Positions 7,951 through 45,518 of a DNA stretch of 64,000 bases are shown here, in pieces. Origin of the DNA: Schmidtea nova (lineage: Eukaryota); NCBI GenBank assembly GCA_044892505.1, contig CM097882.1, positions 184,698,001 through 184,762,000 of the forward strand. The letters are read 5' to 3'. Each line of letters opens with the position of its first letter. The stretch's first letter is position 1. Under the pieces are notes generated by a model. That model was not told the DNA's origin, ran no database searches, and was given only the letters and a program-made list of their open reading frames with translations. The translations under genes were made by a program, and so were the position numbers.

Positions 7951-8009
7951 AGTCAAGTCAAAATTATCGATTTCTTGTACAATTTTTTGAAAAGAGGTGT
8001 TAATATTTA

Positions 8010-8590: not shown

Positions 8591-10009
8591 TCATTCGATT
8601 TTACTGTAATTCTAAAAGGAGAACCATTGATATGCTCATCAAATTGCTGAATGGCAAGCACATAATCTCCAGGAGATTGAGGAAAGCGTACAATTCTACA
8701 GTTTCATCAGCTACATTAGTCGTTTCTGTTTCGGTTTTGGATGGACTTTTAATATTTAATGATGATCCTCTTGTTCTTTCTCCATTGGTAACTATTAGGA
8801 TTTCTGCAGGTATATTTACAAAAGCTTTTAATAAGCCTTCTCCTTGAACAGAAATTTGAGAGCTTTTTTCAACATTATCACAATCATTGTAATGAACATG
8901 ACCATCATCTCTTTCAGGTTTAATGTCGGATGAAAGACACGATTTGTAATCACTATCAATATTTGTCACTGTTTTATCTCTCATCATATGATTCTTTGAG
9001 GAGTTCTGATAATTTGAAACATTAGATTTGCAAAATATTTCGTCACGAAAAGAAGAAACTGTTTTATCATTTCTAACTATCGAAGATCTATGGTGGGTGC
9101 TCAACCTTTAAGAGGTGTAAAACCTTCAAAAATCTTTAAACATTACAAGTTATCTATCATTCGAAAGGTATTTGAGAGGTGCTCACGATGGCCATACTGT
9201 CGATGGTCTATGGTGGGTACTCATCTTTCAAGGGGTCCCAAACCTTCAAAATATTTCAAACCTTATAATTTACATATCAAACAAAAGGTATTAAGAGTTG
9301 AGTATGATGGTGATACCCTTGAAGGTCAAAGGGTTCAAGGTTCAATTAAAAACTATATAATATAGGTATCAATCAACAAGTATTTGTATGACAAGTATGA
9401 AGGTTATATTTTGACAATAAATATGCAAACACAAACAAAAATTAACAAAGAAATTGCAATGCACGTGCAAATTTCACAAAGACTCTGCAAAGTAAATGCA
9501 ACGAAACAAAGACACATGAAACAAAGAAATATAACTTGTAATAATTTTTTGTACACGTGTAACTGGCTTGTGTGTGTGTTTAAGCCGGATATCAGATCAC
9601 ATTCAACGCGCGTTTCACGAGCGTTGTGTCTCTCTTGTGTGTTTAAGCCAGATAACAAAACGCATTGCACGCGCGCGTTTTAACACCCCGCGTGCAAATN
9701 NNNNNNNNNNNNNNNNNNNNNNNNNNNNNNNNNNNNNNNNNNNNNNNNNNNNNNNNNNNNNNNNNNNNNNNNNNNNNNNNNNNNNNNNNNNNNNNNNNNN
9801 NNNNNNNNNNNNNNNNNNNNNNNNNNNNNNNNNNNNNNNNNNNNNNNNNNNNNNNNNNNNNNNNNNNNNNNNNNNNNNNNNNNNNNNNNNNNNNNNNNNN
9901 NNNNNNNNNNNNNNNNNNNNNNNNNNNNNNNNNNNNNNATAAAAGTTTAGACAAGAAAAACAAAAATTGATAATAGTAAAATTTATTGAATAACATTTAC
10001 GCAAATCTC

Positions 10010-10422
10010 GCACTGTCAATTCTCCAAATTGGAGTTATAACATCTTTAGTATCGATTTTATATCACTGAATGATTATAGTAATGAACCAATGTTCTTGAT
10101 CCTTGTATTCGATAGATTAGAAAGCATCATGAAAACGAGTTTTTCGGTTTTTGATTCAAATAATTTCTTTGCAAATTAAACCTTTATTGATTTTCGATAA
10201 AATTTTATTTAGTGCAGCAACCTCTTCTTTAGTTAGAATCGCAGTTAGACTGTCATACATTGACTTTGTTAATTTGACTGGATATGACAAACGAAACGGT
10301 ATTTCTTGTATCAAGAAATAAATTTTGTAATCATAATACATTTTTACTGGTTTGACTTCATTATTGATTTTTCTTTTGCTATCTTCATCATAGGTTTGAA
10401 AATTTTCTTTATGTGTTTGCAT
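10010..10422 (-). pseudogene. Unknown protein, homologous to the central ORF of the palindromic element
   Basis: YPVKLTKSMY..ILSKINK..ITIIIQ*YKIDTKDVITPIWRI aligns with EPVTLKQCMY..ILLAINK..IKIMIQGFKESNDVVKPVWKI at 30061-30336. Confidence 0.65.
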
Positions 10423-10599
10423 TTTAAAAATTATGACATTATCTGAAAAATGTCTTTGTATTTATAGTGATGAGTAATGCCTTTGTCCAATCAAAATGAT
10501 GCATTCTAACTGCACGAGGTATGCATGCCTTTGTTTGCATATGTGTGTGTCTTTGTTGCATATAAATTATGCATGTGTGTTTTATTAATGTGTTTATCA

Positions 10600-14399: not shown

Positions 14400-15139
14400 C
14401 GGATATGGCCGATCGAGGGTTGGTGCCGGACAATCATTGCAATCTGTATTTTTATCAAATTTGGACGCTTTATCAGGAGTAGAATTTGGCCCTTGTGTCA
14501 GTTATTTTTCGTCTTCTTTTTGTTTTAGAGACTCCATCTAGAAATTTTTGAGAGCCCTCAATACCCAAATGCGGTATTTTTCTATTCTGTCCGTACAGTG
14601 CCCACATTGGTAAGCACAAAGAATGTGCTCTGCTATGAACGTTCACTTCAAATCCAAGTTGGCCAGGTGATCCAACAATATTTTATTGATATCAATCTCA
14701 GTGATTGATAATATTTTAATCGGGAGCGTCTTCAGGGCCGTGTAGATTAATTTTGACATCAGGGTTTGGAAACAGCTCCTCCTAAAAGAACTGCCATCAA
14801 TTTATCTAAAAAATAAATATTATAAAAATGAGAAATTTGAAACTTGAAACTTTTCCATATTTCACTAAAGTTGATTTCAAACACATTGTAAATTATAAAT
14901 GATTGTAAAATGTTCATTGTATTTATACTATAGAAACACACAAGAAAATGAAACACACAATCAACCAATCAGATTCGAGTATGCATAACATGTCTTTATT
15001 TAATAAATACACACTGAACCAATCAAAATCGTACAATTCTATTGCAGCTTTATTGCAATCATGAGTCACCCGATAATATGTAATCGACAAAGCCTTTATC
15101 TTCAATAATTGATTTTATATTCATAATTATATTATCAAC

Positions 15140-15506
15140 AATATTTAAATAATCCCTAGTTTTTAAACTATACCACTTGCAAATATATTAACACACATAG
15201 GATTATATTTTATATATTTCAAAGCTGGAAACAATTCTGGTTCGTAAACACATTCTATTGATTTAGCCAAATCATTGAAATTACAACTAAGTCTGCCGTT
15301 ACAGGAATTGATTGGATTGTTAAATCATAAAGCTTTACTTTTTCATCGCTAATAAATTCCTTGCATCCCATAATTCTAAATCCCCCGGTCTTAAAATATA
15401 TTATCGGATATTTATCCCTTCTATCAATAATTTGCTAAGGTTTCCCCTTTTGGAAATTCATGTGCGATACATCAGTCTTACCTATATAATTAATATTGCT
15501 AATCAT
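15140..15506 (-). pseudogene. TBP-like protein
   Basis: MISNINYIGK...KYPIIYFKTGGFRIMGCK...VYEPELFPALKYIKYNPMCVNIFASGIV* matches the TBP repeat motif YEPELFPGL...IFxSGK. Internal stops. Confidence 0.75.
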
Positions 15507-15608
15507 TAATGAAAATCTTTTAAATATGATAATAATAATGAAAACTATTATTTAAAATAAATATAATAAATAAATATAATATATTTAGAAATTATTAAAA
15601 TTAGAAAT

Positions 15609-16235
15609 ATGGAATTAAGAAATGATGTAGTGTTTCAAATTGTTGGCCCGAGCGGGAGTGGAAAAACTCTATTTGTTTGTAATTTATTACAATCAAAATG
15701 ATTCAAATCAAAGTTTAATCTATTGGCATAGGATAGCTGATGAAGAACCTGGAATGACTCAAGATCAATTTTGTAAAATTAAAATGACAATCATAAAATG
15801 TTTCGATAAAAACTAGTCATCTAGATTAAGAGAAGGGGATGTGATGTGATTATTATTGATCACTTGTATCAAGAAGGAAATAAAGAAAAGGATTTTAATA
15901 ATTTATTTACAAAAATCGTAAGACACAATGGTGTTACAGTTATTTTTATTACTCAGAATTTATTTCATCAGGGTGGCAGTCATCGAACTCGTAATTTGAA
16001 TGTTCAATATCTTGTTGTTTTTAAAAATCCCAGGTGCAACAGTTATTGATTTTTTTGCAAGACAAGCATACCCTTCTAATCGGAATTTCTTGATTGGTAG
16101 GTTTCAAGATGCTACAAAAGCTTCTCATGTATATCTTTTTCTTGATTTCACACAACAATATAGTGATGATTTAAGAGTTAAAACAGATATTTTTAAAAGG
16201 AAGGAGCCATGGTTTATAAACAAAGTTAATTTGAT
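15609..16235 (+). pseudogene. Polinton packaging ATPase (A32/FtsK-like)
   Basis: Walker A VGPSGSGKT; IIID; RHNGVTVIFITQNLF; VVFKNPR; YLFLDFTQ. Stops and frameshifts. Confidence 0.88.
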
Positions 16236-16463
16236 GTATATTATCATTTTACAGAATATTATTATTTTACAGAAACCATTTACAAAGAAAACAAAGAAAC
16301 CAGTTTCAAAAACCAGGTATACCAATCTAAAAAATTATTTATAATCATTTATATTCATAAGATTAATCGTATTCAAAATACTATAAAACCAAAACCAAAA
16401 CAAATAGATCATCGTAGTTTCCCATTTTTAATATTTTTAATATAATAACTTAATATTATAAGA

Positions 16464-16718
16464 ATGTGTATTTTACAATCGTTTCGTAATTACATTATTT
16501 ACGATTTACTAATGATTTTAATAAAAGTTGTTAAAGATAAAATCGATATAAGTGAATCAAAAAGAACGGTTTTGAACAAACACAAGAAACCATTGTTATC
16601 ACTTGTAAAAATAAAAAATATAAAAATAATGCGTAAAATAACATATAAACAACAAGGAGGATTTATTGCAGCATCATCACGATTGGGAGGTACCGGTTTA
16701 TTCAGAAAACGGTCATAA
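16464..16718 (+). pseudogene. Small Polinton ORF (basic, QxGGF motif)
   Basis: KHKKPLLSLV...RKITYKQQGGFIAA, a pattern recalled from Polinton accessory ORFs; lies between ATPase and integrase. Confidence 0.5.
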
Positions 16719-16858
16719 ACAATGGAACGATCATTGCGTAATCTTAATTTGAACTTTAAATTTTCTTGTTGAAATGGAGAAGAGATGGATGAACCCAAAA
16801 GACGAAGTCGGTTTCGGCGAAGTCGAAAAGCTAAACAAAAAAGTATCTGTAATGTTCT

Positions 16859-17806
16859 CAATGCGTGTGTCTTATTTTCCCTTATATTTTGTTCCCCCCC
16901 CCCCACTTTTTGTTTTCCGTTATATTATAGTTTTATTAAAATTTTATTTAAAAGTTTAAATTTTGCTTTCTATAGTAAATAACTATAGAAAGCAAATTGA
17001 CAATTAAATTAAATCGATAATTTGAATAAATAATTTTATAAACCCAATTACCTACTCGTGCAGGAGTTAGAAAATCTTAAATCCATTTTTAAAGGAAAAC
17101 GAGTTGCAGAAATTTCCCTTTTGTCAAATCTAACAACAATCTCAAATCCATTTTTAAAGGAAAACGAGTTGCTGAAATTCCCCTTTTGTCAACTCTAACA
17201 ACAATCTTAAATCCACCTTAAAGAAGAACTATTGTGAGAAACTTAAAATTTAACAATAATCTCAAAACCATTTTTTAAGAAAAACGAGTTGCAGAAACTT
17301 CCCATTTGTCAAACCTAACAACAATCTTAAATCCATCTTAAAGAAGAACTATTAAAAACGATTTGCATAAACTTCCCATTGCCAAATTTTAACAACTATC
17401 TTAATTCCAAACAATTTAATACAAGTAACTTTTCGTGGTTCTAAAGTTTTTCTTTTAGAAACATTTTCTGTTAAATATAATTTGCATAATATTTATTTTG
17501 TTAAGTTATTTATTTATTTGTTTGTGTTAATATTGTATCTAAACAGCACTTATTATGCACGCACACACACAAAAGGATATACGCATACACCCCGAGTGTC
17601 CCTACACAAATCGCTGACTCTCTCGGTCTCGTCAATAATTTTCTCTTCTACACAAAACTACATAATAAATAATATTATTTAACAAACATTGACAATGCGT
17701 GTGTCTTATTTTCCCTTATATTTTGTTCCCCCCACTTTTTGTTTTCCGTTATATTACAGTTTTATTAAAATTTAATTTAAAAGTTTAAATTTTGCTTTCT
17801 ATAGTA
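16859..17806. repeat. ~115-bp direct repeats (16859-16977, 17693-17806) enclosing ~85-100-bp tandem units and an LTR-like segment
   Basis: Near-identical CAATGCGTGTGTCTTATTTTCCC...CTATAGTA at both sites. Units AATCTTAAATCCAT..GAAAACGAGTTGCAGAAA at 17073-17400. Confidence 0.8.
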
Positions 17807-17829
17807 TCGAATTCGAAAAAAACAGACTC

Positions 17830-18450
17830 AAAGTTGGTTATCGGGGCAACTTGCATACAGTCTAAACAAACCGATAGTGAAAAGGTTTCCGACACGAGCA
17901 CATAAAACATATAGAAGTAATGATTTGTGGCAAATGGATTTGATGGAAATGATTCCGTATTCAAAAATTAACAATGGATAAAAGTATATTTTAACATGTA
18001 TTGATGTTTACAGTCATTTTTCTCGAGTTATTCTAGTTAAATCCAAATCTGTTAATGATATGGCAATTGCAATCAAAACAATGTTCAAAAGTGGACGTCC
18101 AAATAATTTCCAAATTATTTCTTAATTATTTATTTTGGCAAAAAATTTTACAAAATTTAAGTCAAGGAAATTCTAAAGAGAATCAATCATTACTCGGTAT
18201 TCTCGCAATTCAAAGCAACCTACGTCGAAAGATTTAATCGTACCTTGAGAGATCGTCTCAAAAAGTATTTTGTGCATCAAGGGAATAAAACATGGATTAA
18301 TGTTTTACCCCAAATGATTCATAGTTATAATCATTCTGCTCATCGATTTATAAATGGAAATAAACCTGCTGAAGTAGTTGATTCTGAAAATATTTTGAGT
18401 GATACAAAAATAAAGACACCTAAATATAAAATAGGTGATCATGTTTAAAT
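17830..18450 (+). pseudogene. Polinton retroviral-like integrase
   Basis: WQMDLMEM, KYILTCIDVYS, VERFNRTLRDRLKKYF...WINVLPQMIHSYNHSAH. Confidence 0.9.
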
Positions 18451-18488
18451 TAATAAAATTAGTGCATCACCATTCCTTAAACAATCGA

Positions 18489-19290
18489 ATGAAAGGTCAT
18501 GGAACTATATTTGAAGAATAATTTGCGGTAAATCTAAATTATGCCTTTTTGATCGACCATCTCTCCAAGAAGTTATTGAATATGGGGTGTTTGAAGATGT
18601 ATTTCCAATGAATTTTATTACAGATAGTAGAATGGATGTGGAATTTTACATTGACAGTTCTCAAACAGAATATTTAGATTTGAACGATACTTTATTATCC
18701 GTTACTGTTAAAGTTGTAGATAAAGTTAAAATAAATTAGCTGATGCGAATGATGTAGTACCTAATAATTACTTGTTTCATACTCTTTTCAAAGATGCAAT
18801 TCTTGGATTTAATAATATAAAAGTTGAGGGTGGAAACAATACATACGCACACAAGGCAATTATCGAAACTATTTTAAATTATTCGAGTGTTGCAAAAGAA
18901 ACTTGTCATACTCCAATGGGATATGGTGCATCTGAAGATAGAAAAAAAGTGGATTAAAGGATCGAAACTTTTCAACATGTGTTCATCATTACAACTAGAT
19001 TTTATGGATCAACCTAAATATTTACTTCCCGGAGTTAATGTACATATTAGATTGAAGTGATCTGATCCTGCATTATCATTGACATCTACAGCTGGGAAAC
19101 CAATAATATAATTAATAAATGCAAAATTAATGGTTCGAAAAGTTCGATGAGAATATTCAGTATTTGCTGGACATCAAATTGGGTTAAATGACAAACATGC
19201 AATTTATCCGATAAAATCAAAAGAAATTGTATCTTTTGCAATCGGTAAAGAGACATCATCATTTTTCAAGGAGCAAATATTTGGAGATAG
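18489..19290 (+). pseudogene. Polinton major capsid protein (PY) N-terminal part
   Basis: VEFYI..SQTEYLDLNDTLL, PNNYLFHTLFKD, YAHKAIIETILNY, DFMDQPKYLLPGVNVHIRL, AKLMVRKV. Confidence 0.82.
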
Positions 19291-19529
19291 AATTTGTTTT
19301 AGATATTTTAAAGTTTTTGATTAAAGTTTTTAAAGTTATGGGTTAAAGATTTATTAGTTCGTTTAGTTTAAACTTTTTTAAAAGTTTTATTTTTAAAAGT
19401 ATTATTATTATTACTTACACTTGTACATTTAAATTTCTTTACACTCGTTCTTGATACATTTAGATCGCAATGTCTTTGTTCTTCTTGCATCTCCATTGCC
19501 TTGTCTTTGTTTAAGTTTGCATATGGATT

Positions 19530-20700
19530 GCAATGATTCCTCATGTTGTTTATCTGGATTGATTTTATTTTCCCGTAATGTTACCATTCCAACAGGAACA
19601 ATTACAATTAAATTTAAATTCCAAGTTCGCTAAAAAATCCAAAATAAATCAGCTAAACAAAATCAAAACCGCCCATTACATAAATCAAATTAGCCCAGAT
19701 AAACAAATCAATGTCGTTATTAAGTTTTTTAATAATTCATAATTAAAGTTTTTTAAAGTTATCCAAAATTACAAAATTAATTCTCATAAAAATAAATCAA
19801 ATTTTTAGAATTCCAATTTTTGGTTGCAATAATCCAACGTCAAATAAATAAAATTTTCGTTTCGTAATTTGCTTGCTATATCAAAATTACTTTCATTATT
19901 TTCATTTAGCTGATTCACATTTCCCTCATTTTCTAAAAGCATTTTAATGATTGATTGATAGCTCTCAAAATCGGCAGATAATGATTCCTCGTGTTGCTTA
20001 TCTGGATTGATTTATTTTCCCGTAATGTGACCATTTCAACAGGAACTAATATTCCTAATTTAGGTTTACATAAAAACAACCTTTGAAAAGAAAATGTTCC
20101 ATCTGTTCCATCATTGATAGGAAAATTTAGCTTAATTCCATAAAGATATTTCAAATTGACGGAATATCCAGACCAAGCAATTGTTCCATAGAGCTTCTCA
20201 ATTTGATTACTCGATGTCATGCGATAAAACTTTACTGACGAGTTGGTATTAATGTTTTTAGACGTTTTTAATTAGTTAGGAATAACTGATTCGGTACAAT
20301 TTGACACAATATTAACATTTGTAACAGGAGTAAATACTCCTTATTTCGATCTCGTTTCAAAGTTGTTTTTGTAGTCTAACTTTCCAGAATTACCAAATCT
20401 GTACGGTTCATCAAGATCGATCCCAACACAATCAATGCGATTAATTTTTCCTAACCATTTGACTTTTCCTAGCATGCTCGTTCGACCATTTGCAGTCTTA
20501 AGAAAAGTTGTCACTCTTTTTCCTATTTCCAATTCACCGATTTGATTGCATAATTCTTTAGAGGATCTCCAAAGATTATCAACGTCGATAAATTGATCTT
20601 CTATGAAAGGTAACATTAAGTACATACAATTTTCATTATTGTCCATTTCTACAGGTATATAGCTACATATACCACCAATTCTGATCAATTCATGCTAATT
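19530..20700 (-). pseudogene. CAP-Gly domain fragments, CYLD-like
   Basis: GKVKWLGK..CVGIDLDEP...FETRSK*GVFTPV and LYGTIAWSG..YGIKL..GTDGTF..RLFLCKPKLGILVP. 19530-19610 duplicates ~19980-20060. Confidence 0.7.
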
Positions 20701-21524
20701 TCTTAATAAACTTAAACATAAATTAATTATAGAATTATTGATAAGACCGTCTAACGGCTTCCAGGCTCGCCCCACAATCCCTCACATCAATCAAGCTCCG
20801 CAATTAATTATTTTAGTTTTTATTTAATTAATTTTTAAATACTTTATTAAGCGGGTATGACCTTCAAACTCACCATCAAAAGTCCTTCTGAATNNNNNNN
20901 NNNNNNNNNNNNNNNNNNNNNNNNNNNNNNNNNNNNNNNNNNNNNNNNNNNNNNNNNNNNNNNNNNNNNNNNNNNNNNNNNNNNNNNNNNNNNNNNNNNN
21001 NNNNNNNNNNNNNNNNNNNNNNNNNNNNCTTTAGAATGAGTAAATCTTCTTCTGTAATTTGTTCTGTAATTTGTTCTGTAATTTGTTTCGCTATAATTAA
21101 AAAGGTAAGTATAGGATGAGTTTAGGATTTATCTTCTTAGGATAATTCTTATGATAATCTTCTTCTGTAATTTGTTCTGTAATTGCCTTTTTTAATTTAT
21201 TTCCAACAATAGTTTATTTTGTTCATAAAAAATCGATCTCTTTAATTTGTCTTGACAATTTCTTTAGTTTATTTAATTGTCATTGGCGATTTTTAATTCT
21301 AATTATTTTATTGATTTGTTTTTTAAACTTATTTTTTTGCAATTTCTGTATGCAGATTCTAAATAAATAAAAAGGGGGTTTAACGGGTGTCCGCAAGGAC
21401 GCCCCTACTAATAAAAGCGTTAACAAAATTAATAATAATAATAATGACAACAAAAATAATAAAAATAACAATATTATATAACATTTGCAATGGGAATCAT
21501 GGGAATCAAATGGGAAACATTTAC

Positions 21525-24153
21525 ATAACTTCCCTCTTTAAAACCGGAGGTTACAATCACGATATGAATGGATTTTTACACCTTTTTTACATTGGGGATA
21601 ACAAACGAAAAACGGTTAAGTATTTAGTCATTAAATATTTACAATACTCATATTTGTATGTGTTTGTTATGTAAGTTGTTTGGTGTTTTGTTGCGTACTA
21701 CATTATAACAATAAAACAAAATATAAAACTTTACATTGAGATATGTTTGCCTGCTATGTAGTGTTGTGTTGTTTGAGGCATTGGCTGTAAAGCTTTTTGT
21801 ATGGTGTGATAATCGCGTTTTTGTTGAATTCTTTTATTCTGTTTCTGCTGTTGAATGTTATATGCTTTTTCTTTATTTGGGTTTCGTTGTGTGAAGGGTT
21901 GCATGGGGGTGATGCATGGAGGTTGTTGATTGTGGTTATATGGTTTGGTTCTACGCATATTAATTCTTATTTTGTTGTTGTCTTTTATTATTGTGACCAC
22001 GTTTTTGTTGATTTCGAGTATTTTGAATGGGCCTTCGTATTCGTCTTCGAAACCTTTTGTGTATGGCTTCTTTATTAGTAAGTAATCGGTTGTTAGTATT
22101 ATCTTGCCATCGTTCTCTGAGTTTGGTCTCTTTTTCAGTATTCCTTTTAATTTGTTTTCGATGTTTTGACTGTTTTTAGTTGTTATTTGTTTGTTTATTT
22201 CTTCGTTGTTTTTTAAGTTTGCTTGCTCGTCGAAAGTTACTGGTGCGATAAGTTTGTCGACATTTTCCAGTAGTGTATTTATTTCTGGGCCATGATTCAG
22301 TTTTTGTTTTGATTTATAGTTTATTGGACCCATTTGGATAACACCAATGTCTATTTTTGAATTTGTTGTCGCCATGGTTTTGACGATTTCTTTGTTTGTG
22401 TTTGTGTTTTCCGTTAGTGTTTTATTTCGGCAGTCTACTGTGAGGTTGTAGTGTGCCAGAAAGTCAGCTCCTATTATGGATTGTTGAACATCAGCGATTA
22501 TAAATGTCCAGCTGTATTTCTTTGAATTGATTGTCAAGGTTAGGGTGTGTTCACCAAATGTTTTTATGTTTGTGTCATTGGCTGCAGTTAAATGTTTTTC
22601 TGCGTTTTTGTATTTTTGTTAAGGTAATGTGAAAATAAGGATACGTTTGTGTTTGTTTCATCGAATGAAGGAGCAACTAATGGCAAACTTTTCAATTTTT
22701 CTGAGTTGTTTTGGTTATTTCTGCATGGTTTTGTGCATTTGAATATCTTTTCTCCAAATTTGCTATGGAAGTAACACCATTCTTGGTTTGATAATCTTAT
22801 TTCTGGTTTCCAGAATTTTTGTTTATTTCCAGTTTCTTTGTTTTTATGGTTGTAAAAGTCTTGGTGTTGATTTCCTGAGTTTGGCTTCGGCCTATTGAGC
22901 CTATACGCTGTTTAATTTGGACCGTAACTTTGTTTTAAGTTCTTTTCTTTAATTTCGTTCAGTTCTTATTTGTACCTTTTATTTTTATTTGCGATTTTGT
23001 CTAGTTGATTTATTAATTTAGTAAGAATTTTGTTTGTTTCGCAAAGTTCTGTTCTTTCGTTTTCTTCTTCGTCTTGTTCATGGTTAGGAATTTTGTTTTG
23101 GTAGTCATGAGTGCTATTAATGCTGGGGTAAGGTCCTGCATTTGTTTTATTGACAATGTCTGTCCATTTTTTATTTTCAGTTTCATTATTTTTAGTTGCT
23201 AATGTTTGACATGATCTCTGTTCATTTACGTCAAAGTTTGCTAATTTTGTTTGGACGTACTCCAAATTCTGTTTTAGTGGATTTGAAAAATTATTTTGGA
23301 TATTATCCTTTTGCCTGTTGTTTGTGAATGATTCTTGTAATTCTTTTTTGTTTGTTTCGTCCCTATTTGCTAATATGCTGCACAGTTTTTCAAATGGGTT
23401 ATTGCTATTGAAAATCTTGCCTTTTTGATGAGCAAATGTTTCGCGTATATTGCTTGGGAGTGCCGATAATATTTGTGAGCATATTAGTCTTGATGAGGTA
23501 ATACCGCTCAAAGTTAATGACAATTTGGCTATTTTTAACCATGCTTGCACTGAACTTTCTTCGTTGATAAAAAATTTGGGATTTGGTTAATCATGGGATT
23601 GGTTTTTATGCTTTTAAAATTATTTATATTCTTGTGTTGTTTTATTTGCTTTGTGAAAACAATTTGAGTGTAGTAAAAGAATATGACCTACTGTGTTCGG
23701 TCAAAAGATCTCACCTTCCTTTATAGTTCTATAATAACTATGCTAAAAGGAAAGGTGATTTGAAAAAAAATCGTCAAATGTGTGTTTTAATGTTTTTTTC
23801 CTTCTGACACCAGTTATTATGTTGTGATAAAATGTTTTCGTTATTGATAGTTGTGATGAAATGTTTTTGTTATTGATAGTTATGTTGTAAATGAATGAAA
23901 GTTGGGTAAAAGAGATACTGTAGAGACCGAAAGTGTCCTCCAAAATTATGTGGAGACAGTCGGGGTGTATGCTTATATACTTTTGTGTGTGTGCATGCAT
24001 GTGTATATAGAATATGCTGTTTAAAGACAAAAATAACACAACAAAATAAATAAATATTGTAACGAATTAATTATTATACACATTTCTATTTAGAAGAAAA
24101 TGTTTTTAAAATGACTTTAAAACCACGAAAAGTTACTTGTGTTATATTGCTTT
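21525..24153 (-). mobile_element. Internally deleted Gypsy (CsRn1-like) element
   Basis: PBS, gag (22966-23550), CHCC knuckle WCYFHSKFGEKIFKCTKPC (~22720-22780), protease IIGADFL fused in one ORF to integrase C-terminal YEGPFKI, PPT TAAAGAGGGAAG before TGT. Confidence 0.8.
23801..23812 (-). promoter_or_regulatory. Primer-binding site (tRNA-Leu-like)
   Basis: TGGTGTCAGAAG is complementary to the ...CTTCTGACACCA 3' end of metazoan tRNA-Leu. Confidence 0.7.
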
Positions 24154-26724
24154 ATTGTTAGTAGAGTAGGGGGAGCGCCCAAGAACAGGAACAGACCGCC
24201 CCCCCCAAAAAAATTTTTAACCCCCCCCATATAAAATTTTTTTAACCCCCCCCCTAAAAAAATTTTTAATTTTTAATTTTGTTTAAATGAAGTGAATTTT
24301 TAAATTTATATTTTTTGTTTAAATGAAGTCAATTTAATTTTATTATTTTNNNNNNNNNNNNNNNNNNNNNNNNNNNNNNNNNNNNNNNNNNNNNNNNNNN
24401 NNNNNNNNNNNNNNNNNNNNNNNNNNNNNNNNNNNNNNNNNNNNNNNNNNNNNNNNNNNNNNNNNNNNNNNNNNNNNNNNNNNNNNNNNNNNNNNNNNNN
24501 NNNNNNNNNNNNNNNNNNNNNNNNNNNNNNNNNNNNNNNNNNNNNNNNNNNNNNNNNNNNNNNNNNNNNNNNNNNNNNNNNNNNNNNNNNNNNNNNNNNN
24601 NNNNNNNTTATTAATTTATTTTAATTTTTTGAATACAATATTTTGATCTGGTTATTTTTGTATAGGATTTTCTACTCCGAGATTTTCTAGGGCAAAAAGG
24701 GCCTCTGGGTTTTTTGTACAGGAGTTTTTGTATAGGATTTTTGTTCTGGATTTTTGAATACAATATTTTGGTCTGGTATTTTTTGTATAGGATTTTTAGT
24801 CCTATTATTTTGAATAGGATTTTCAACTCCCATATTTTTCTCAGGCAAAAAGGGACTCTGATAATTTTTAACTGTAATTTTATTGCTAAATAAAAGACGT
24901 GTAAATTTTTTAAACAAGTAAATTATCGTTAAAGTATTTTGAATAGGATTTTCTACTCCCAGATATTTTCTAGGGCAAAAATAAACTCTGATAATTTTGA
25001 ACTGAAATTTTTATGGTAAATAAAAAACACGTGTAAATTTTTTAAACAAGTAAATTATCATTAAAGTATTTTGATTAGGATTTTCTACTCCCAGATATTT
25101 TCTAGGGTAAAAATAGACTCTGGTAATTTTGAACTGAAATATATATTTTAATGCTAAATAAAAGACACGTGTAAATTTTTTAAACAAGTAAATTATCATT
25201 AAAGTATTTTGTATATGATTTTCAACTCCCAGATATTTTCTAGGGCAAAAAATAGACTCTGATAATTTTGAACTGAAATTTTATTGGTAAATAAAAAACA
25301 CGTGTAAATTTTTTAAACTAGTAAAATACATTGAATTTATTTTGAATAGGATTTTCAATTCCCACATTTTTCTCGGGCAAAAAGGGACTCTGGTAATTTT
25401 GAATATGATTTTTGATCTTGATTTTTGTATAGGATTTTTAGTCTGGTATTTTTGAAAATAATATTTTGGTCGGGGAAAATTAAAAAGTGGTCAGAATTCA
25501 ATAATTTCTATATCAATCTACTGAGAATTGAAAGACAAACAATAATGGTCAAAAAATTAAGAAACATGAAAAATTGATCTTTTCCGATCCAATTTTTACA
25601 CGTAAAAGGTCAACTCGGGGAATTTCCAAAAAATCAAAAATGCTCAGAATTCAATAATTTTTATACCAATCTACTGAGAATTGAAAAGCGAACAATAAAG
25701 GTCAAAAAATTAAAATCATGAAAAAATCAAAATTTTATACGGGAAATGACAGTCTCAGTAAAAAAGGGTAAAGTACATAAAAACGTGGAAATATTTAAAA
25801 TAAAAATTTTTAAACTAAATAATTAAATCTAAATAAATTTATGATAATTAAATAAAAAAGTAAATAAATTCTATACAAATTTCAAAACTCAGTAAATAAT
25901 TCACTCATTATTTTGTATTGAATTTATCAAGTAAAATGGTACATTAAATAAAAAAGTAAATAAATTTTATACGAATTTCAAAACTCAGTAAATAATTCAC
26001 TCATTATTTTGTATTGAATTTATCAAGTAAAATGGTACATTAAATAAAAGCATGGAAATAATAAGTAAATTAAACTTAGAATTTAAAAATAATTTGTACT
26101 GGATTTATGAAAAATGGCAAAGTAAATAAATTAAAGATTGAATTTTAAAAATAATTATGAATTTAATGATAAATAGAATTATAAGTAAATTAAGAATAAA
26201 AAAGTAATTAAGAAAGACGTGAGTTTTAATGTCATAATTTTAAAATGAATTGGTTTTAAAGGAACTTTTTAAGGTAATATTTGAAAAATGTGAGAATAAT
26301 TAATTATTTTTGAAATTTTTTAAAGTAAAATTTTTTAACAGTAAAGTCAATGTAGAATTTTTTATCAATAAAATCAATAAAAATTTTTTAATTAATAAAT
26401 TTCAAAGTAAACATTTTTTCGAAAGTAAATATTTTTCACAAGTAAAGTTTTTAACTAATAAATACAAATCTAATTGTTTTTCAATATGTTGTTTTTTAAG
26501 GAAATGATCAAATAACAACAAATAAATGTAGTAAATAAAACATATGTAATTATTGAATTTATTTAGAATAAAAATAGTTATTAAACAAGAGTTGTTACAA
26601 TTTTGTATACTAAGTTAAAAAATATCGATTAATAACATAAATTTTTAAAAAATAAACGTAATAATTAAAAATATGGGAACAAGTAAATAATAATTATAAT
26701 AATTATAATTATAATAATAATAAT

Positions 26725-26757
<33 letters not shown>

Positions 26758-26979
26758 AAGTAACGTCTATCAATCAATCTAAGTACCAACAATAAACCGA
26801 TCAACTAACTAATAATCTCATTACACACACAAATAAACCACTGACTAGTAACTGATCAAATGCCAACTGACTCTATCCACAAATCATCAATCAACTAGTT
26901 ACTTACAAGTTACCAACTGACTCTATATATTAACCAACTAGGAAATTGTTCCATGTGACAATCACTTCCTATTGCCTAT

Positions 26980-28330
26980 ATATCAAATAATCCAATCCCC
27001 TTAGTTAACAAATAGTACAATTCCTTACTTACTAACTTTATCAATACTAACCAACTAACTAACTATACATACTAACCAGCAAACACTTCCTTACTAACCA
27101 AATAGTTCTATACATCAACCAACTAACTCTTCACATTAACCAAGTATAAATACTAACCAGCAACCAATACCTTACTAACCATCTAGTTCTATACATTAAC
27201 CAACTAACTTTATTCACAAATCACCAACCAACTAACTAACTATACATACTAACCAGCAATCAATTCCTTACTAACCAACTAGTTCTATACATCAACCAAC
27301 TAACTCTTCACATTAACCAAGTAACTAACTAACTATACATACTAACCAGCAACCAATACCTTACTAACCAACTAGTTCTATACATTAACCAACTAACTTT
27401 ATTCACAAATCACCAACCAACTAACTAACTATACATACTAACCAGCAATCAATTCCTTACTAACCAACTAGTTCTATACATCAACCAACTAACTGTTCAC
27501 ATTAACCAAGTAAGTAACTAACTATACATACTAACCAGCAACCAATACCTTACTAACCATCTAGTTCTATACATCAACCAACTAACTTTATTCACAAATC
27601 ATCAACCAACTAACAAACTATACATACTAACCAGCAATCAATACCTTACTAACCAACTAGTTCTATACATCAACCAACTAACTCTTCACATTAACCAAGT
27701 AACTAACTAACTATGCATACTAACCAGCAACCACTTCCTTACTAACCAAATAGTTCTATACATCAACCAACTAACTCTTCACATTAACCAAGTAACTAAC
27801 TAACTGTACATACTAACCAGCAACCACTTCCTTACTTACCAACTAGTTATATACATCAACTAACTAGTTCTATCCATTAATCTTATACCTATCAGTCTAC
27901 CAACCAACCAACTAACTACCTATACACACTAACCAGAAATCAATTCCTTACTAACCAACTAGTTATATACATCAACCAACTAGTTCTATACATTATTCTT
28001 GTACCAACCAACCAACTACACTAACCAACTAACTAGCTATACATACTAACCAACAACTAATCTCTTACTAACCAACTAGTTCTATTCATCAACCAACTAG
28101 TTCTAATCATTATTCTTGTACCAACCAACCAACTACATTAACCAACTAACTAACTAAACACTATAATTATCAACCAATTCCTTACTTCCCAACTAACTAT
28201 TCTCATTAACCAACTAGTTCTATACATTAACCAACTAACTCTATTCATAAATCAACAACAGACTAGTTAATTATTAAATATCAATTGATTCTATCCACAA
28301 TCTACTAGTTAAATCAACTAATCGGATACC
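26980..28330. repeat. C/A-rich higher-order tandem array (ACTAACCA-rich); mirror copy at ~30900-31750
   Basis: Recurrent CATACTAACCAGCAA..CCTTACTAACCAACTAGTTCTATACAT units of ~60-170 bp. Confidence 0.9.
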
Positions 28331-29875
28331 AACTGACTCTATATATTAAACAAATAAATCTTCACTCTAAGGAAATTGTTCCACGTATCAATTAACTCTT
28401 CGCATTAACTAGATATGATATTTAAAACTATCTGATTCTAAATGTCGTGTCATAAAATTAAATTTATTACTTTGAATAATTAAATTAATCTTTAGTTGAT
28501 TATCAGTTTTTTAAAAGGTATACTAATATCTACGTAGTTAAAATGAATTTTTTTATTAAATAAAGTTCTTAAAATGTAAATAAATTTTATTCCAAATCTC
28601 TATTGAAATCATTGTTCATCTATTTCTTCACTTGATAACTAACATGTATAATTAATTTAAAAACATTATAAAAAACTCTGTTAACTAGGTAAACATATTA
28701 AAATGATAAGTAAGCAACTAATGAATTATTTTTGATACTTCTTATTACATGTTCAATTTAATTCTTCACTCCGTTAATTTTCAATTAATTATTCAATTAA
28801 TTCTAAAAATAATAAAAATTAATTCAAAAATTTCAGTACAAATATTTATTTATTAAACATTTTTATTAACCACGCTAAACAGTACTACCAAATGTTTTTG
28901 TCATTGGATTCTAGTATCAGATTCTGTTATATTCAATTCACATCAACATTGACGATATGTTTTTTATCAATAGCGACGGATAATAAAATCCCATTGGATC
29001 AAACATATTTTATCGGGTTTCACATAAACTGCAATCATGAAAATATAATTTGAATCTTTTGCAGGTAAAAACCATCACAAAAGAGGTTCTGCTACCAAAG
29101 GTTCTGTTAGAAAGGTTCTGTTAGAAAGGTTCTGCTACGTGATAAATTTAATGAAAATGTATCAATAATAGTATATATTACTAAGTGAATATACAATATG
29201 AATCTTTTACAGGTAAAAACCATCACAAAAGAGGTTCTGCTACCAAAGGTTCTGCTAGAAAGGTTCTGATACTAAGGTTATATTAGAAAAGTTCTGATAC
29301 TGAATATAATTGTTAATAATGAATTTTACCAAAATATTTATTGATTTTTCATTTTAAATATTTTCAGTGAATTATTAATATTAATATTTTTATTATTTTT
29401 ATTATTAGCACGTAATAATTTTGTAACATTAAATCTGTTTCGAATGTTCTTTATGAAATTTATAAAAGTTGATATAATAAGAAAAACTAATCAATTTATT
29501 CACAAAGGGCAAATTATGTATGTGATGCAGTTACCTCTTTAGGTATAGTAACTTTTCATTGAATTGTGACAGTTTTTATCATAATTCGAAGCATTACAAT
29601 ATTTTTTGATATATTCTGTCTATTAAAAGATTTTGCATAAATAATTAATTATCATATTAAAATAAAGTGTGTATCTGCACACAAAAATATCGATAAATAA
29701 AAATTAATGAAAATTGTTAAACGAAATCTGGTTGGTCAATTTAAATTATGAAAACATGTATATAAATTGATTAAAAATTACAGATTTCATTAAAAATGTA
29801 TCAATTTAAAAGTAAGTTTAATTAATTTTAAATGATTATTTTTAATATTTTATTCTAGAATCTTCGAACAAAAAG

Positions 29876-30336
29876 ATGTTGAAACAAGAAGTAATGAAAA
29901 TTATTCTTGAAGAAAATTCTATTTCGGCATCAAATTTGGTTAGGAATCCTGCAGTTCAATTTCTACAATACTCGATGGAATATTTAAAATTTCCAATCAT
30001 TTATTCATTTAAAGTATATATTTATTTAATTAAAATAAATTTCAAATATTTATTTTATAGGAACCTGTTACATTGAAACAATGCATGTATAATCTTCAAG
30101 TGGGGAAAATTGGAGATATTGATAGACGAAATATTTCAGAAATTTTGTTAGCAATTAACAAAGAAATACAATTTACTGAAGCTTTTACGTATATGAATTG
30201 CATTAAAGATTGTAATTTGAAAAATCTCGATGAAAATTCAATATATCAAATTAAGATAATGATTCAAGGCTTCAAAGAATCTAATGATGTTGTCAAACCT
30301 GTTTGGAAAATTATAGAAACAAATATATGTGAATAA
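29876..30336 (+). CDS. Spliced unknown ORF at the centre of the palindromic element
   Basis: Exon 29876-30013 and exon 30061-30336 join in frame across a 47-nt GT..AG intron. An upstream acceptor at 29858 suggests more exons. Confidence 0.6.
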
Positions 30337-31973
30337 AATTTATTTATCAAATCTTATCTTTTAATTTTATTTAATTTTATTTTTTGTTTTGGTTAATTTA
30401 AATTTTTAATAACAATTATTTTTTGTGTTAAATTTATTACCAAATATTTAAAATCGATTAGTTTTTTATTAAAATAAAAATAATATATATATATATATAT
30501 ATATATCAAATTCCAAATTAATTATTGTTGCCGGTGAAATATTAAAGAAAATTAATTTGAATTTTAATTTTAAACATATAATCAATTATTAAAACAAGAT
30601 CAATTTAGAATAATTATGATAATAAAATTAATTATTTTTATTTCATTTTAACTACGTAGATATTAGTATACCTTTTAAAAAACTGATAATCAACTAAAGA
30701 TTAATTTAATTATTCAAAGTAATAAATTTAATTTTATGACACGACATTTAGAATCAGATAGTTTTAAATATCATATCTAGTTAATGCGAAGAGTTAATTG
30801 ATACGTGGAACAATTTCCTTAGAGTGAAGATTTATTTGTTTAATATATAGAGTCAGTTGGTATCCGATTAGTTGATTTAACTAGTAGATTGTGGATAGAA
30901 TCAATTGATATTTAATAATTAACTAGTCTGTTGTTGATTTATGAATAGAGTTAGTTGGTTAATGTATAGAACTAGTTGGTTAATGAGAATAGTTAGTTGG
31001 GAAGTAAGGAATTGGTTGATAATTATAGTGTTTAGTTAGTTAGTTGGTTAATGTAGTTGGTTGGTTGGTACAAGAATAATGATTAGAACTAGTTGGTTGA
31101 TGAATAGAACTAGTTGGTTAGTAAGAGATTAGTTGTTGGTTAGTATGTATAGCTAGTTAGTTGGTTAGTGTAGTTGGTTGGTTGGTACAAGAATAATGTA
31201 TAGAACTAGTTGGTTGATGTATATAACTAGTTGGTTAGTAAGGAATTGATTGCTGGTTAGTGTGTATAGGTAGTTAGTTGGTTGGTTGGTAGACTGGTAG
31301 GTATAAGATTAATAGATAGAACTAGTTAGTTGATGTATATAACTAGTTGGTTAGTAAGGAAGTGGTTGCTGGTTAGTATGTATAGTTAGTTAGTTACTTG
31401 GTTAATGTGAAGAGTTAGTTGGTTGATGTATAGAACTAGTTGGTTAGTAAGGAATTGATTGCTGGTTAGTATGTATAGTTAGTTAGTTGGTTGGTGATTT
31501 GTGAATAAAGTTAGTTGGTTAATGTATAGAACTAGTTGGTTAGTAAGGTATTGGTTGCTGGTTAGTATGTATAGTTAGTTAGTTACTTGGTTAATGTGAA
31601 GAGTTAGTTGGTTGATGCATAGAACTAGTTGGTTAGTAAGGAATTGTTTGCTGGTTAGTATGTATAGTTAGTTAGTTGGTTAGTATTGATAAAGTTAGTA
31701 AGTAAAGAATTGTACTATTTGTTAACTAAGGGGATTGGATTATTTGATATATAGGCAATAGGAAGTGATTGTCACATGGAACAATTTCTTAGTTGGTTAA
31801 TATATAGAGTCAGTTGGTAACTTGTAAGTTACTAGTCGATTGATGATTTGTGGATAGAGTCAGTTGGCATTTGATCAGTTACTAGTCAGTGGTTTATTTG
31901 TGTGTAATGAGATTATTAGTTAGTTGATCGGTTTATTGTTGGTACTTAGATTGATTGATAGACGTTACTTATT

Positions 31974-32006
<33 letters not shown>

Positions 32007-35000
32007 ATTATTATTATTATAATTATAATTATTATAATTATTATTTACTTGTTCCCATATTTTTAATTATTACGTTTATTTTTTAAAAATTTATGTTATT
32101 AATCGATATTTTTTAACTTAGTATACAAAATTGTAACAACTCTTGTTTAATAACTATTTTTATTCTAAATAAATTCAATAATTACATATGTTTTATTTAC
32201 TACATTTATTTGTTGTTATTTGATCATTTCCCTAAAAAACATCATATTGAAAAACAATTAGATTTGTATTTATTAGTTAAAAATTTTACTTGTGAAAAAT
32301 ATTTACTTTCGAAAAAATGTTTACTTTGTATTTATTAATTAAAAAATTTACATTGATTTTATTGATAAAAAATTCTACATTGACTTTACTGTTAAAAGAT
32401 TTTACTTTAAAAAATTTCAAAAATAATTAATTATTCTCACATTTTTCAAATATTACCTTAAAAAGTTCCTTTAAAACCAATTCATTTTAAAATTATGACA
32501 TTAAAACTCACGTCTTTCTTAATTACTTTTTTATTCTTAATTTACTTATAATTCTATTTATCATTAAATTTATAATTATTTTTAAAATTCAATCTTTAAT
32601 TTATTTACTTTGCCATTTTTCATAAATCCAGTACAAATTATTTTTAAATTCTAAGTTTAATTTACTTATTATTTTCATGCTTTTATTTAATGTACCATTT
32701 TACTTGATAAATTCAATACAAAATAATGAGTGAATTATTTACTGAGTTTTGAAATTCGTATAGAATTTATTTACTTTTTTATTTAATGTACCATTTTACT
32801 TGATAAATTCAATACAAAATAATGAGTGAATTATTTACTGAGTTTTGAAATTTGTATAGAATTTATTTACTTTTTTATTTAATTATCATAAATTTATTTA
32901 GATTTAATTATTTAGTTTAAAAATTTTTATTTTAAATATTTCCACGTTTTTATGTACTTTACCCTTTTTTACTGAGACTGTCATTTCCCGTATAAAATTT
33001 TGATTTTTTCATGATTTTAATTTTTTGACCTTTATTGTTCGCTTTTCAATTCTCAGTAGATTGGTATAAAAATTATTGAATTCTGAGCATTTTTGATTTT
33101 TTGGAAATTCCCCGAGTTGACCTTTTACGTGTAAAAATTGAGTCGGAAAAGTCAAAATTTTCATGTTTTTACTTTTTGAACCTTTTTTGTTCGCCATTCG
33201 ATTCTCAGTAGATTGGTATAAAATTTATTTGATTCTGAGCATTTTTGATTTTTTGGAAATTCCCCGAGTTGACCTTTTACGTGTAAAAATTGGATCGGAA
33301 AAGATCAATTTTTCATGTTTTTTAATTTTTTGACCATTATTGTTTGTCTTTCAATTCTCAGTAGATTGATATAGAAATTATTGAATTCTGACCACTTTTT
33401 AATTTTCCCCGACCAAAATATTATTTTCAAAAATACCAGACTAAAAATCCTATACAAAAATCAAGATCAAAAATCATATTCAAAATTACCAGAGTCCCTT
33501 TTTGCCCGAGAAAATATCTGGGAGTTGAAAATCATATACAAAATACTTTAATGATAATTTACTTGTTTAAAAAATTTACACGTGTCTTTTATTTAGCATT
33601 AAAATATATATTTCAGTTCAAAATTACCAGAGTCTATTTTTACCCTAGAAAATATCTGGGAGTAGAAAATCCTAATCAAAATACTTTAATGATAATTTAC
33701 TTGTTTAAATAATTTACACGTGTTTTTTATTTACCATTAAAATTTCAGTTCAAAATTATCAGAGTTTATTTTTGCCCTAGAAAATATCTGGGAGTAGAAA
33801 ATCCTATTCAAAATACTTTTACGATAATTTACTTGTTTAAAAAAATTAAACGTCTTTTATTTAGCAATAAAATTACAGTTCAAAATTACAAGAGTCCCTT
33901 TTTGCCTGAGAAAAATATGGGAGTTGAAAATCCTAATCAAAATAATAGGACTAAAAATCCTATACAAAAAATACCAGACCAAAATATTGTATTCAAAAAT
34001 CCAGATCAAAAATCCTATACAAAAATTCCTGTACAAAAAGCCCAGAGGCCCTTTTTGCCCTAGAAAATCTCGGAGTAAAAAATCCTATACAAAAATAACC
34101 AGATCAAAATATTGTATTCAAAAAATTAAAATAAATTAATAATTAATATAAAATTAAAATAAATTAATAAATTAATTAATAAATTAATTAATAAATTAAT
34201 TAATAAATAAATATAAAAATTAATTAAAATTAATAAAATTAAAATTAATAAAATTAATAAAATTTAAATTAATTAATAAAATTTAAATTAAATTAAAATT
34301 AATAAAAATAAATTTTAATTAATTAATAAATTTTAAATTAAATTAAAATTAATAAAAATAAATAAAAATAAAATAAAGACTTCATTTAAACAAAATAATA
34401 AAATTAAATTGACTTCATTTAAACAAAAAATATAAATTTAAAAATTCACTTCATTTAAACAAATTAAAAAAATTTTAAAAATTTTATGGGGGGGGGTTAA
34501 AAATTTTTTTTTGGGGGGTCTGTTCCTGTTCTTGGGCGCTCCCCTACTCTACTATTGTTTATTGTTATATTGTGTTATATTGCATCTCTATTAATACCAT
34601 TTTAACGGCATTTAATTAAATTGATTAATTAAATTTTGTTGTATTTTAAATTTAAAAATATTTTCATTTTAAATATATACTAATTACAAATTAATTTGTT
34701 GTTTGATTCTTGATAAATTTAATTTATGCTTATTTTAATATTTAATTTATTTATTTTAATAAATAATTATATATTTATTCTCCGTAAATTTAATTTTAAT
34801 AATTACTTTATTTATTTCCTAAATATTTATTTTTCGTTTATTAAATGATGTGTGTATCCATTTTAAGCACGCGTTAATTGATCGATTAAAACAATCAAAT
34901 TTAATTTCGATTTAATTTTTCTATTATCTCTGTTTTTTACGATATTTCAATAGGGATTTCTTCTATAATTTTTACTAAATTTTGATCATGCTTTTCTTAT

Positions 35001-45478: not shown

Positions 45479-45518
<40 letters not shown>

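Follow-up and report, generated by a model that had tools for sequence, protein, structure and literature searches.

A palindromic insertion of 10.4 kb lies at 24160-34553 of the window, which is the whole 64-kb stretch of DNA analysed here, and its coordinates are exact. It consists of two inverted arms, together 80% of its length, and a spacer between them:

24154..24159, no strand: left copy of the TSD, ATTGTT
24160..28547, + strand: left arm (TIR), 4,388 bp
27938..28547, no strand: inner left arm, 610 bp, perfectly complementary to 30642-31251
28548..30641, no strand: spacer (loop) of 2,094 bp, present in many copies in one organism
29038..29279, + strand: paired 94-bp units (91% alike) with 14-bp subrepeats, within the spacer
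30642..34553, - strand: right arm (TIR), 3,912 bp, 67% of it tandem arrays, terminating CTACT-CTACT
34554..34559, no strand: right copy of the TSD, ATTGTT

The left arm begins with a ~40-bp GC-rich terminal cap starting AGTAG-AGTAG, which is followed by an AT-rich tract with an N gap, by tandem modules of 132-138, 152, 96, 3, 93/96 and 117 bp in that order, and by a non-repetitive inner 300 bp. The gap is 258 N long (24350-24607), and the mirror tract in the right arm has 249 bp with 1.6% GC. AGTAG stands twice at either terminus and the ends are 5'-AG..CT-3'; both read 5'-AGTAGAGTAGGGG, for which the 64-kb window has no further site even when 2 mismatches are allowed (mean expected by chance 0.22). 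When lengths from 2 to 14 were tried, only length 6 was duplicated at the borders, and this TSD is exact. Its chance occurrence is 0.0008 window-wide and 21 of 3,025 local 6-mer pairs (0.7%), the local value being that high because the flanks are a degenerate repeat, with a degenerate 14-bp repeat present on both sides. No empty site is given by the 76% paralogue (17409-17655) of the left flank (23902-24152), whose similarity breaks off 7 bp short of the TSD and is not resumed in the right flank. At 44928-46010 the same window also has a small element of the foldback type, with a duplication of 9 bp.

None of the core genes (pPolB, integrase, ATPase, protease, capsid) was found inside 24160-34553. 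The longest stop-free frames are 107 codons in the left arm, 91 in the spacer and 116 in the right arm; there is no polB motif in the element, no core-gene trace in the spacer, and neither a long frame nor a Walker A motif in the element, so that no SF1 (Tlr1-like) helicase gene was recognised. A sequence-only reading of the window had already placed the element here, with arms of ~4.4 and ~3.9 kb around a 2.1-kb spacer, AGTAG..CTACT ends, an ATTGTT TSD, arms differing in tandem copy number and SNPs, and no pPolB, integrase or capsid. This description is borne out in each of these respects. It does not mention the N gap of the left arm, the spliced frame in the spacer, the high repetition, the rare letters common to both arms, or the nearby Polinton relic and the intronless homologue.

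How alike are the two arms? They agree at 3,463 of the 3,508 non-N columns of their alignment (98.7%), which leaves 45 mismatches, and are separated by four large indels of 132, 152, 177 and 282 bp, all in tandem arrays; the 93-bp unit, for example, has 7.8 copies in one arm and 3.8 in the other. Across the inner 610 bp there are no mismatches at all (P = 0.001 if only the inner end is considered, 0.036 when any gap of this kind counts). Note that at 28431 the window's letter has less than 5% of the read depth, and at 28512 less than 1%, in all three runs described below, and that both arms carry these letters. Since rare letters common to both arms are missing from nearly all other copies, the arms evolve together. 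This co-evolution fits foldback or panhandle copying; chromosomal gene conversion or assembly could be alternative sources of the identical inner arms. Might the palindrome as a whole be an assembly artefact, in which two adjacent family copies, or an arm duplicated by the assembler, were falsely joined? The 45 differences and the four array-length differences argue against it, as do the exact TSD, the 14-bp repeat in both flanks, which is expected of a single interrupted locus, and the agreement of the N gap (258) with its mirrored tract (249). We regard such an artefact as very improbable, although some points would favour it: the six N gaps of the window, one of them in the left arm, hint at a gapped assembly, repetition of the family is high, no letter differs across the inner 610 bp and no contig spans 28240-30641.

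Repetition was gauged from read contigs of three runs (X1, X2 and X3), all from a single study and one organism, with the source sample possibly among them; X4 (same sample as X2) and X6 (share 0.06) were left out. The region used, 28240-30641, is the spacer plus 308 bp of arm only, and the termini lie outside it. The contigs matching it number 13,021, 3,956 and 4,651 in the three runs and cover all unmasked bins. Single-contig depth reaches 3,511, 1,198 and 1,436, whereas the remaining listed pieces have 7-100. Summed contig depth, which is not equal to copy number, is about 20-30 times that of the remaining spacer at 29038-29279 in X2 and X3 and 2-3 times in X1; the ratio of arm bins to spacer bins is 3.4, 3.5 and 1.1, the last in X1. 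The spacer and inner arm are therefore highly repeated in the DNA of one organism, that is, they belong to a family, and some of its copies have most of the spacer gene described below deleted. The terminal motif had no match in viral contigs, and its 12 matches in metagenomes were all unrelated (12/12) by flanking sequence and BLAST; a second insertion bearing these ends and a TSD of its own was thus not seen in these collections.

Is the present copy then a one-off deletion derivative of a large long-TIR Polinton, which lost its core genes here, while the repeated reads come from full-length elements in which those arms and that accessory gene also occur? From a junction private to such a deletion one would expect abundant loose ends or joints within the spacer, and there is none among the best 24 of 1,553 loose ends and the best 15 of 73 joints; depth is continuous over the whole spacer, where core genes have left no trace. 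We find this explanation quite unlikely, even though the copy number covers spacer and inner arm only, butterfly Polintons are described with TIRs of ~2 kb and with polB-less copies (bioRxiv 2025.02.07.637071), and intron-bearing cargo genes are described beside the TIR in nematode Mavericks (bioRxiv 2022.07.12.499685).

The spacer contains a predicted three-exon gene of 148 aa with two introns of 47 nt:

29796..29811, + strand: predicted exon 1, from the first ATG
29859..30013, + strand: predicted exon 2, preceded by a 47-nt GT-AG intron with 11% GC
30061..30336, + strand: predicted exon 3 (91 aa) and stop, preceded by a 47-nt GT-AG intron with 6% GC

The spliced frame has 155 codons, while 200 resampled spacers gave at most 117. 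Predicted exon 3 is 59% identical to a homologue, P0001 (E 6e-22), with the same end point. Among 40 of 118 sites listed, four coding differences are private to this copy, and three of the four alter an amino acid. An acceptor at 29783 leaves room for an extra exon upstream of exon 1. One upstream exon, 29707-29730, was ruled out, as its donor G at 29731 is missing from every matching contig. What does the gene encode? The protein has no Pfam family, no match among PDB sequences, no homologue of near or longer length in a word-index search, only weak rows in PHROG (E 0.05-0.18) and a best Atlas score of 0.83, and no related locus was found in metagenome or viral contigs. A fold search with a model of pLDDT 57, which bears on a possible fold of a known ssDNA-binding protein (SSB) as well, had a best Z of 5.0 and yielded nothing at the thresholds of E <= 0.001 and Z >= 8; a second model has a pLDDT of 37.

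A decayed Polinton lies 5-9 kb from the element, with pieces of an A32 ATPase, an integrase and a jelly-roll capsid gene within 3.7 kb, and a relative of the spacer protein is found in the same window:

9997..10428, - strand: intronless, broken remote homologue of the spacer protein, 3 internal stops
15609..16344, + strand: A32-type packaging ATPase of the relic, broken (Pox_A32 24.3 bits, cut-off 22.8)
17805..18448, + strand: rve integrase of the relic, broken (E 6.7e-7)
18515..19324, + strand: double-jelly-roll capsid gene of the relic, broken (piece 18730-18954 scores 0.92-0.96 to jelly-roll capsid clusters in Atlas)
21370..21412, - strand: GC-rich cap that may be the right end of the relic, with AGTAGGGG, common to the element ends; a lead only

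The capsid call rests on Atlas, the pieces having no Pfam or PDB match. Six viral contigs weakly match the relic ATPase (33-37% over 49 aa) and nothing else. Pfam detected no pPolB in the surroundings at 12401-15609 or 19321-20882, no left end of the relic was found, and its DNA has no significant similarity to the arms or spacer of the element. The possible right end (21400-21412) shares ~10 letters, AGTAGGGG, with the element ends, a pattern that was picked post hoc and has no left partner; with the 30-nt element terminus as query, this site falls outside the top 10 of 3,477 segments. The intronless homologue was detected at E 2.7e-5 among 1,062 chunks, with 0 of 2,000 target shuffles reaching it for each of two queries, and with a profile probability of 91%; by tblastn alone it is weak, as 2 of 200 shuffled queries reach its score. 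It is 5.2 kb from the relic ATPase with another repeat in between, and given this distance, the repeat and the weak tblastn score, it may lie outside the relic.

What kind of element is it? The 6-bp TSD, the AG..CT ends and the terminal tandem unit together indicate a Polinton and not another group with 6-bp TSDs. An unlikely alternative is a foldback-type cut-and-paste transposon, non-autonomous and dependent on a DDE transposase of non-Polinton origin, in which the modules would be transposase-binding arrays, the arms would be homogenised by chromosomal recombination and the gene would be captured cargo. The right arm is indeed 67% tandem, and the foldback element at 44928-46010, with its 9-bp duplication, shows that such elements exist in this genome. 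There is also a precedent in Galileo, a foldback-type element of Drosophila, which is described with long, internally repetitive TIRs, variable tandem copy number, inward extension of the TIRs by recruitment of inner sequence, and the longest TIRs in non-autonomous copies (PMC3573991). However, Galileo belongs to the P superfamily and has a 7-bp TSD and TIRs of up to ~1.26 kb in the same account. IS3EU and GingerRoot agree with the element in their 6-bp TSD but are given termini of TA..TA or TG..CA (PMC10045372), while Ginger has a TSD of 4-5 bp and TGT ends. The intronless homologue of the spacer gene near a Polinton relic also speaks against a DDE element.

We consider it likely that the element is a helper-dependent Polinton (Maverick) satellite with one predicted gene, and that its TIRs, about three times as long as the range reported for Polintons, are homogenised by panhandle copying. 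Panhandle ('racket') replication is a published Polinton model (PMC4196379). For the satellite, a Polinton elsewhere in the genome would supply terminal protein, protein-primed polymerase and integrase, with the GC-rich AGTAG cap as the recognition site of these helper enzymes. Once displaced, the single strand would fold over the arms into a panhandle, within which one arm could be copied or repaired from the other; such copying would extend the arms towards the spacer and maintain their similarity even as tandem units slip. The integrase would then insert the new copy, making the 6-bp duplication. To our knowledge, replication by the published panhandle model has been demonstrated for no Polinton. 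As for the gene, more tentatively, it may derive from an accessory gene of Polintons, have acquired its introns within the satellite and work in trans, the last being proposed because some copies delete most of it. A bolder scenario, which is possible and on balance doubtful, is that animal Polintons spawn a distinct class of satellites. These would be giant palindromes that homogenise themselves and, as panhandles, are replicated by the protein-primed machinery of the helper, like copy-back defective viral genomes but fixed in the germ line. The present family would have kept one Polinton accessory gene and added spliceosomal introns to it, and the product of this gene would act in trans, either competing with the helper or regulating it.

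The idea of a non-autonomous Polinton satellite with giant modular TIRs, put forward in the sequence-only reading, gains support from the ends, the TSD, the multi-copy core and the presence of Polinton genes in this genome. It holds only in part, since the spacer has a conserved predicted gene and the element is therefore not devoid of genes. An origin by foldback replication agrees with the co-evolving arms, as panhandle copying also does. The comparison with transpovirons does not hold, as these are described as carrying an SF1 helicase that is absent here (PMC5499653), and 'MITE-like' is unsuited to 10.4 kb with a gene; both terms were rejected. If the helper-dependent reading is right, a family with co-changing 4-kb arms would preserve in the genome a trace of the panhandle intermediate that the model predicts, and because so many copies exist, its extrachromosomal forms would be easier to search for than those of rare helpers. 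True satellites with a gene of their own would then be demonstrated for Polintons, and these escape searches keyed on polymerase and integrase genes.

Non-autonomous Polintons are already known. Those of the Repbase type, from Kapitonov and Jurka in 2006, reportedly have Polinton ends and a 6-bp TSD without core genes, and are said to be ordinary deletion derivatives, not 80% palindromes; for the giant-palindrome form, no paper was found in a literature search. Transpovirons and Tlr1 resemble the element in being linear, in having terminal inverted repeats and in depending on or deriving from the Polinton-like supergroup, but as described they encode an SF1 helicase, and Tlr1 also capsids, an ATPase and an integrase, none of which the element has (PMC5499653). 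The polB-less or cargo-bearing Polintons of butterflies and the cargo-bearing Mavericks of nematodes also resemble the element, being Polinton-related with intron-containing passenger genes; in the cited descriptions they keep other core genes, whereas the element has none, and its arms have twice the length, do not code for protein and consist of tandem repeats over two thirds of their extent (bioRxiv 2025.02.07.637071; bioRxiv 2022.07.12.499685). Polinton-related elements are described as staying mobile without polB, with TIRs of up to ~2 kb (bioRxiv 2025.02.07.637071). In Polintons proper, a 6-bp TSD is reported together with the vertebrate end motifs (AGT)2, (AG)3 and (AC)3A (PMC8097293), and TIR lengths are given as 46-1,447 bp for vertebrates and 100-1,500 bp overall (PMC8097293; PMC10748475). 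The terminal unit here, the 5-bp AGTAG twice, is none of the three motifs given for vertebrates, though its first five letters equal those of (AGT)2 (PMC8097293). The element departs from Polintons/Mavericks in lacking core genes, in its TIRs of 4.4 and 3.9 kb and in its one predicted intron-bearing gene, while it shares with them the 6-bp TSD, the AG..CT ends with a short terminal tandem unit, the TIRs, and a size near the lower part of their range.

The element is a real insertion structure, and it is no autonomous Polinton.

24160-34553: the element, two inverted arms around a spacer

In a global alignment of 24160-28547 with the reverse complement of 30642-34553, the arms, which make up 80% of the element, match at 3,463 of 3,508 non-N columns. 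Mismatches number 45 and are scattered across the outer parts, and all four large indels (132, 152, 177 and 282 bp) lie in tandem arrays; in the right arm, 67% of the sequence is tandem repeat. The terminal motif AGTAGAGTAGGGG is the same at both ends and occurs nowhere else in the window. The sequence-only reading of a 10.4-kb palindromic element whose arms differ in tandem copy number and SNPs is thus borne out. Its 6-bp target-site duplication is also confirmed: ATTGTT stands on both sides, and among lengths of 2-14 bp only 6 bp is duplicated (chance 0.0008 window-wide, and 0.7%, or 21 of 3,025 pairs, in the repetitive local flanks). No stop-free frame longer than 116 codons and no polymerase or ATPase motif was found within the element, in agreement with the claim that no polymerase is encoded. 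A 258-N gap lies in the left arm, and its mirror in the right arm is 249 bp of nearly pure A/T. Strand composition is extremely skewed in the 93/96- and 117-bp modules (26770-28240 and mirror; GC skew of -0.65 to -0.83), and the outer modules differ from them in this.

Do the two arms evolve separately? Their innermost 610 bp are identical. Inward of the gap, 34 mismatches occur among 3,346 aligned bases, none of them in these 610 bp (P = 0.001 for a mismatch-free inner end; 0.036 for a mismatch-free stretch of such length anywhere). In all three aligned sequencing runs of one organism, the window's letter takes less than 5% of depth at 28431 and less than 1% at 28512, and the same two letters stand at their mirrored positions, 30758 and 30677 respectively. 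At these sites and their mirrors, both arms of most copies agree on one letter, and both arms of the window copy on another. Independent drift after insertion cannot explain the shared rare letters; arm-to-arm copying can. The arms evolve together. Possible sources of their identity are panhandle copying in replication, chromosomal gene conversion and local assembly collapse. Collapse of whole arms is excluded because of the 45 outer mismatches, and it is very improbable that the element is an assembly artefact.

The element core belongs to a multi-copy family, as shown for the spacer and inner arm at 28240-30641. The spacer is present in six runs: two are soil metagenomes, and four come from a single study of one organism. 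Contigs of four of the six (three organism, one soil) were aligned to 28240-30641, a stretch that has the element termini outside it. In the organism runs the contigs falling on this stretch number 13,021 (out of 5.46 million), 3,956 (out of 3.57 million) and 4,651 (out of 3.17 million), and they cover 28 of its 30 bins, with the remaining two masked. The deepest single contigs reach 3,511, 1,198 and 1,436, against 7-100 for other pieces among those listed. Judging by these contig counts and single-contig depths, near-identical copies of spacer and inner arm probably number in the tens to hundreds, although summed depth is not a measure of copy number. The stretch 29685-30345 also occurs in one soil run, with 11 differences over 660 bp. 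The median arm/spacer depth ratio is 3.4, 3.5 and 1.1 in the organism runs (from three bins in the arm and 20 in the spacer; seven bins excluded, namely the junction, three repeat, one AT-rich and two masked), and two of the three runs are compatible with two arms per spacer. The end motif AGTAGAGTAGGGG had 12 matches in metagenomes, all 12 unrelated. The duplicated spacer unit 29038-29279 is far commoner than the rest of the spacer in two organism runs (X2 and X3) and has loose ends at 29056 and 29095; it may be a satellite, or a module common to other elements.

The spacer is predicted to hold a spliced gene.

29796-29811, 29859-30013 and 30061-30336, plus strand: exons of the spacer gene, predicted splicing, 148-codon frame

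Its two predicted introns are GT-AG, 47 nt each, with 11% and 6% GC. The longest spliced frame has 155 codons in the real spacer, against 62 on the opposite strand and a range of 42-117 (median 66) in 200 resampled spacers. In a search of 1.84 billion representatives the last exon matches one protein, P0001, with 59% identity (E 6e-22) and a common end point; P0001, the unnamed product of a contig, shares its cluster with one nearly identical protein. Family, Atlas and fold searches gave no match for the spacer protein. In some family copies a 374-bp deletion (29908-30281) removes most of the predicted gene; it appears in three runs and accounts for about 4% of the summed depth there. A further upstream exon was rejected because its donor base is missing from every contig aligned to the spacer.

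A Walker A motif at 15645 led to a Polinton relic located 5-9 kb to the left of the element.

15609-19324, possibly 9939-21412: Polinton relic, broken by stops and frameshifts, with A32 ATPase, integrase and capsid pieces
9997-10428, minus strand: intronless spacer-protein homologue, one frame with three stops, adjoining an N gap

Pox_A32 is the best Pfam family for the ATPase (24.3 bits, cut-off 22.8), the integrase matches rve (E 6.7e-7), and one capsid piece scores 0.92-0.96 against clusters in which 10-23% of members bear Sputnik_MCP, Capsid_N or DJR-like domains; every one of the ATPase, integrase and capsid pieces is broken. Judging from these matches, Polintons are present in the element's own genome. 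No pPolB was detected near the relic. At 21409-21412 ends a GC-rich cap (57% GC vs 17% outside; element cap 60% vs 20%), which reads AGTAGGGGCG inward, with a chance mean of 0.06 in the window for a pattern chosen after the fact. The 30-nt terminus alignment does not single it out, and as a candidate relic end akin to the element's ends it is a lead only. The relic has no significant DNA similarity to the element. That the element arose by deletion, at this locus, from a Polinton with long TIRs seems improbable.

The relic span also holds a TBP-like remnant (~15160-15320 minus, E 0.0025) and a CAP-Gly remnant in two stretches (~20300-20700 minus, E 2e-16). The element's left flank is an LTR-like repeat, of which a 76% copy, 17409-17655, lies inside the relic, bracketed by 119-bp direct repeats at 16859 and 17693. 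The frames that accompany this repeat in 21731-24152 minus had no Pfam match; by their motifs they are presumably retrotransposon-like gag/protease.

Then where does the spacer gene come from? The spliced spacer protein aligns to 9997-10428 across the site of its second intron, with a tblastn score of 27.7 bits that 2 of 200 shuffled queries also attain. In the profile search this place ranks top of 1,062 chunks (E 2.7e-5; next unrelated chunk E 0.42), and no target shuffle out of 2,000 equals it for the spacer protein, nor out of 2,000 for P0001 separately; profile-profile comparison gives a probability of 91% (E 9e-7). Between the homologue and the relic ATPase lie 5.2 kb, of which about 2 kb belong to another repeat. 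Since core Polinton genes are described as intronless in PMC8097293 and bioRxiv 2022.07.12.499685, as is this homologue, the preferred reading, at about even chances, is that the spacer gene descends from a Polinton accessory gene and gained its introns later. The alternative is a host retrocopy or an unrelated mobile gene.

Other features lie in the window. A small foldback element at 44928-46010 has two inverted arms of 146 bp, built from 15-bp units and 99% alike, an AT-rich core with two N gaps and a direct 9-mer on either side; presumably it is Mutator-like, judged by TSD length. It is inserted in a dispersed repeat, with further repeat copies near 35824, 51961 and 61200. Broken frames at 549-2554 minus, presumably of a hAT-like transposase, had no Pfam match. 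There are also two divergent host-like genes, one at 7582-9107 minus (SAPS, E 1e-5, adjoining a weak filamin repeat) and an intronless frame at 50805-51815 plus, whose only homologue (65%) carries PF22493, and two diverged copies of a coding repeat (10440-12400 and 48700-50200), related at protein level only. The host appears to belong to a thinly sampled lineage of AT-rich eukaryotes, probably animals.

How might such an element be maintained? It is probably a helper-dependent Polinton satellite, with arms homogenised by panhandle copying and a gene acting in trans. A helper Polinton would provide the polymerase and integrase that act on the AGTAG cap, copying through the panhandle would have lengthened the arms and would keep them homogenised, slippage would alter the tandem units, and the spacer gene product would act in trans. 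In adenovirus, one terminal repeat is repaired from the other through a panhandle. The founding Polinton paper reportedly describes non-autonomous families. The element has the features tested for a non-autonomous Polinton derivative, the shared-terminus comparison giving only the short post hoc AGTAGGGGCG likeness. The sequence-only proposal of a non-autonomous satellite gains support from these features and from a relic in the same genome, and needs amending in that the spacer carries a predicted gene.

For Polintons, protein-primed replication via a single-stranded racket-like form and integration with 6-bp duplications have been proposed (PMC4196379). Vertebrate Maverick TIRs measure 46-1,447 bp, with ends (AGT)2, (AG)3 or (AC)3A (PMC8097293), and the general Polinton range is given as 100-1,500 bp (PMC10748475). 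Butterfly Polintons have TIRs up to ~2 kb, and some amplify without polB (bioRxiv 2025.02.07.637071); nematode Mavericks carry cargo genes with introns (bioRxiv 2022.07.12.499685). A foldback element of another superfamily is an unlikely reading, if less so than a local deletion derivative: Galileo shows the same arm dynamics but a 7-bp TSD (PMC3573991), and IS3EU/GingerRoot shares the TSD length but differs in its ends (PMC10045372). No report of core-less, Polinton-ended, mostly palindromic elements was found in a literature search that had most subscription papers and Repbase reports outside it. What is distinctive here is the single intron-bearing predicted loop gene, whose intronless relative lies close to a Polinton relic, together with read evidence of both arms changing together.
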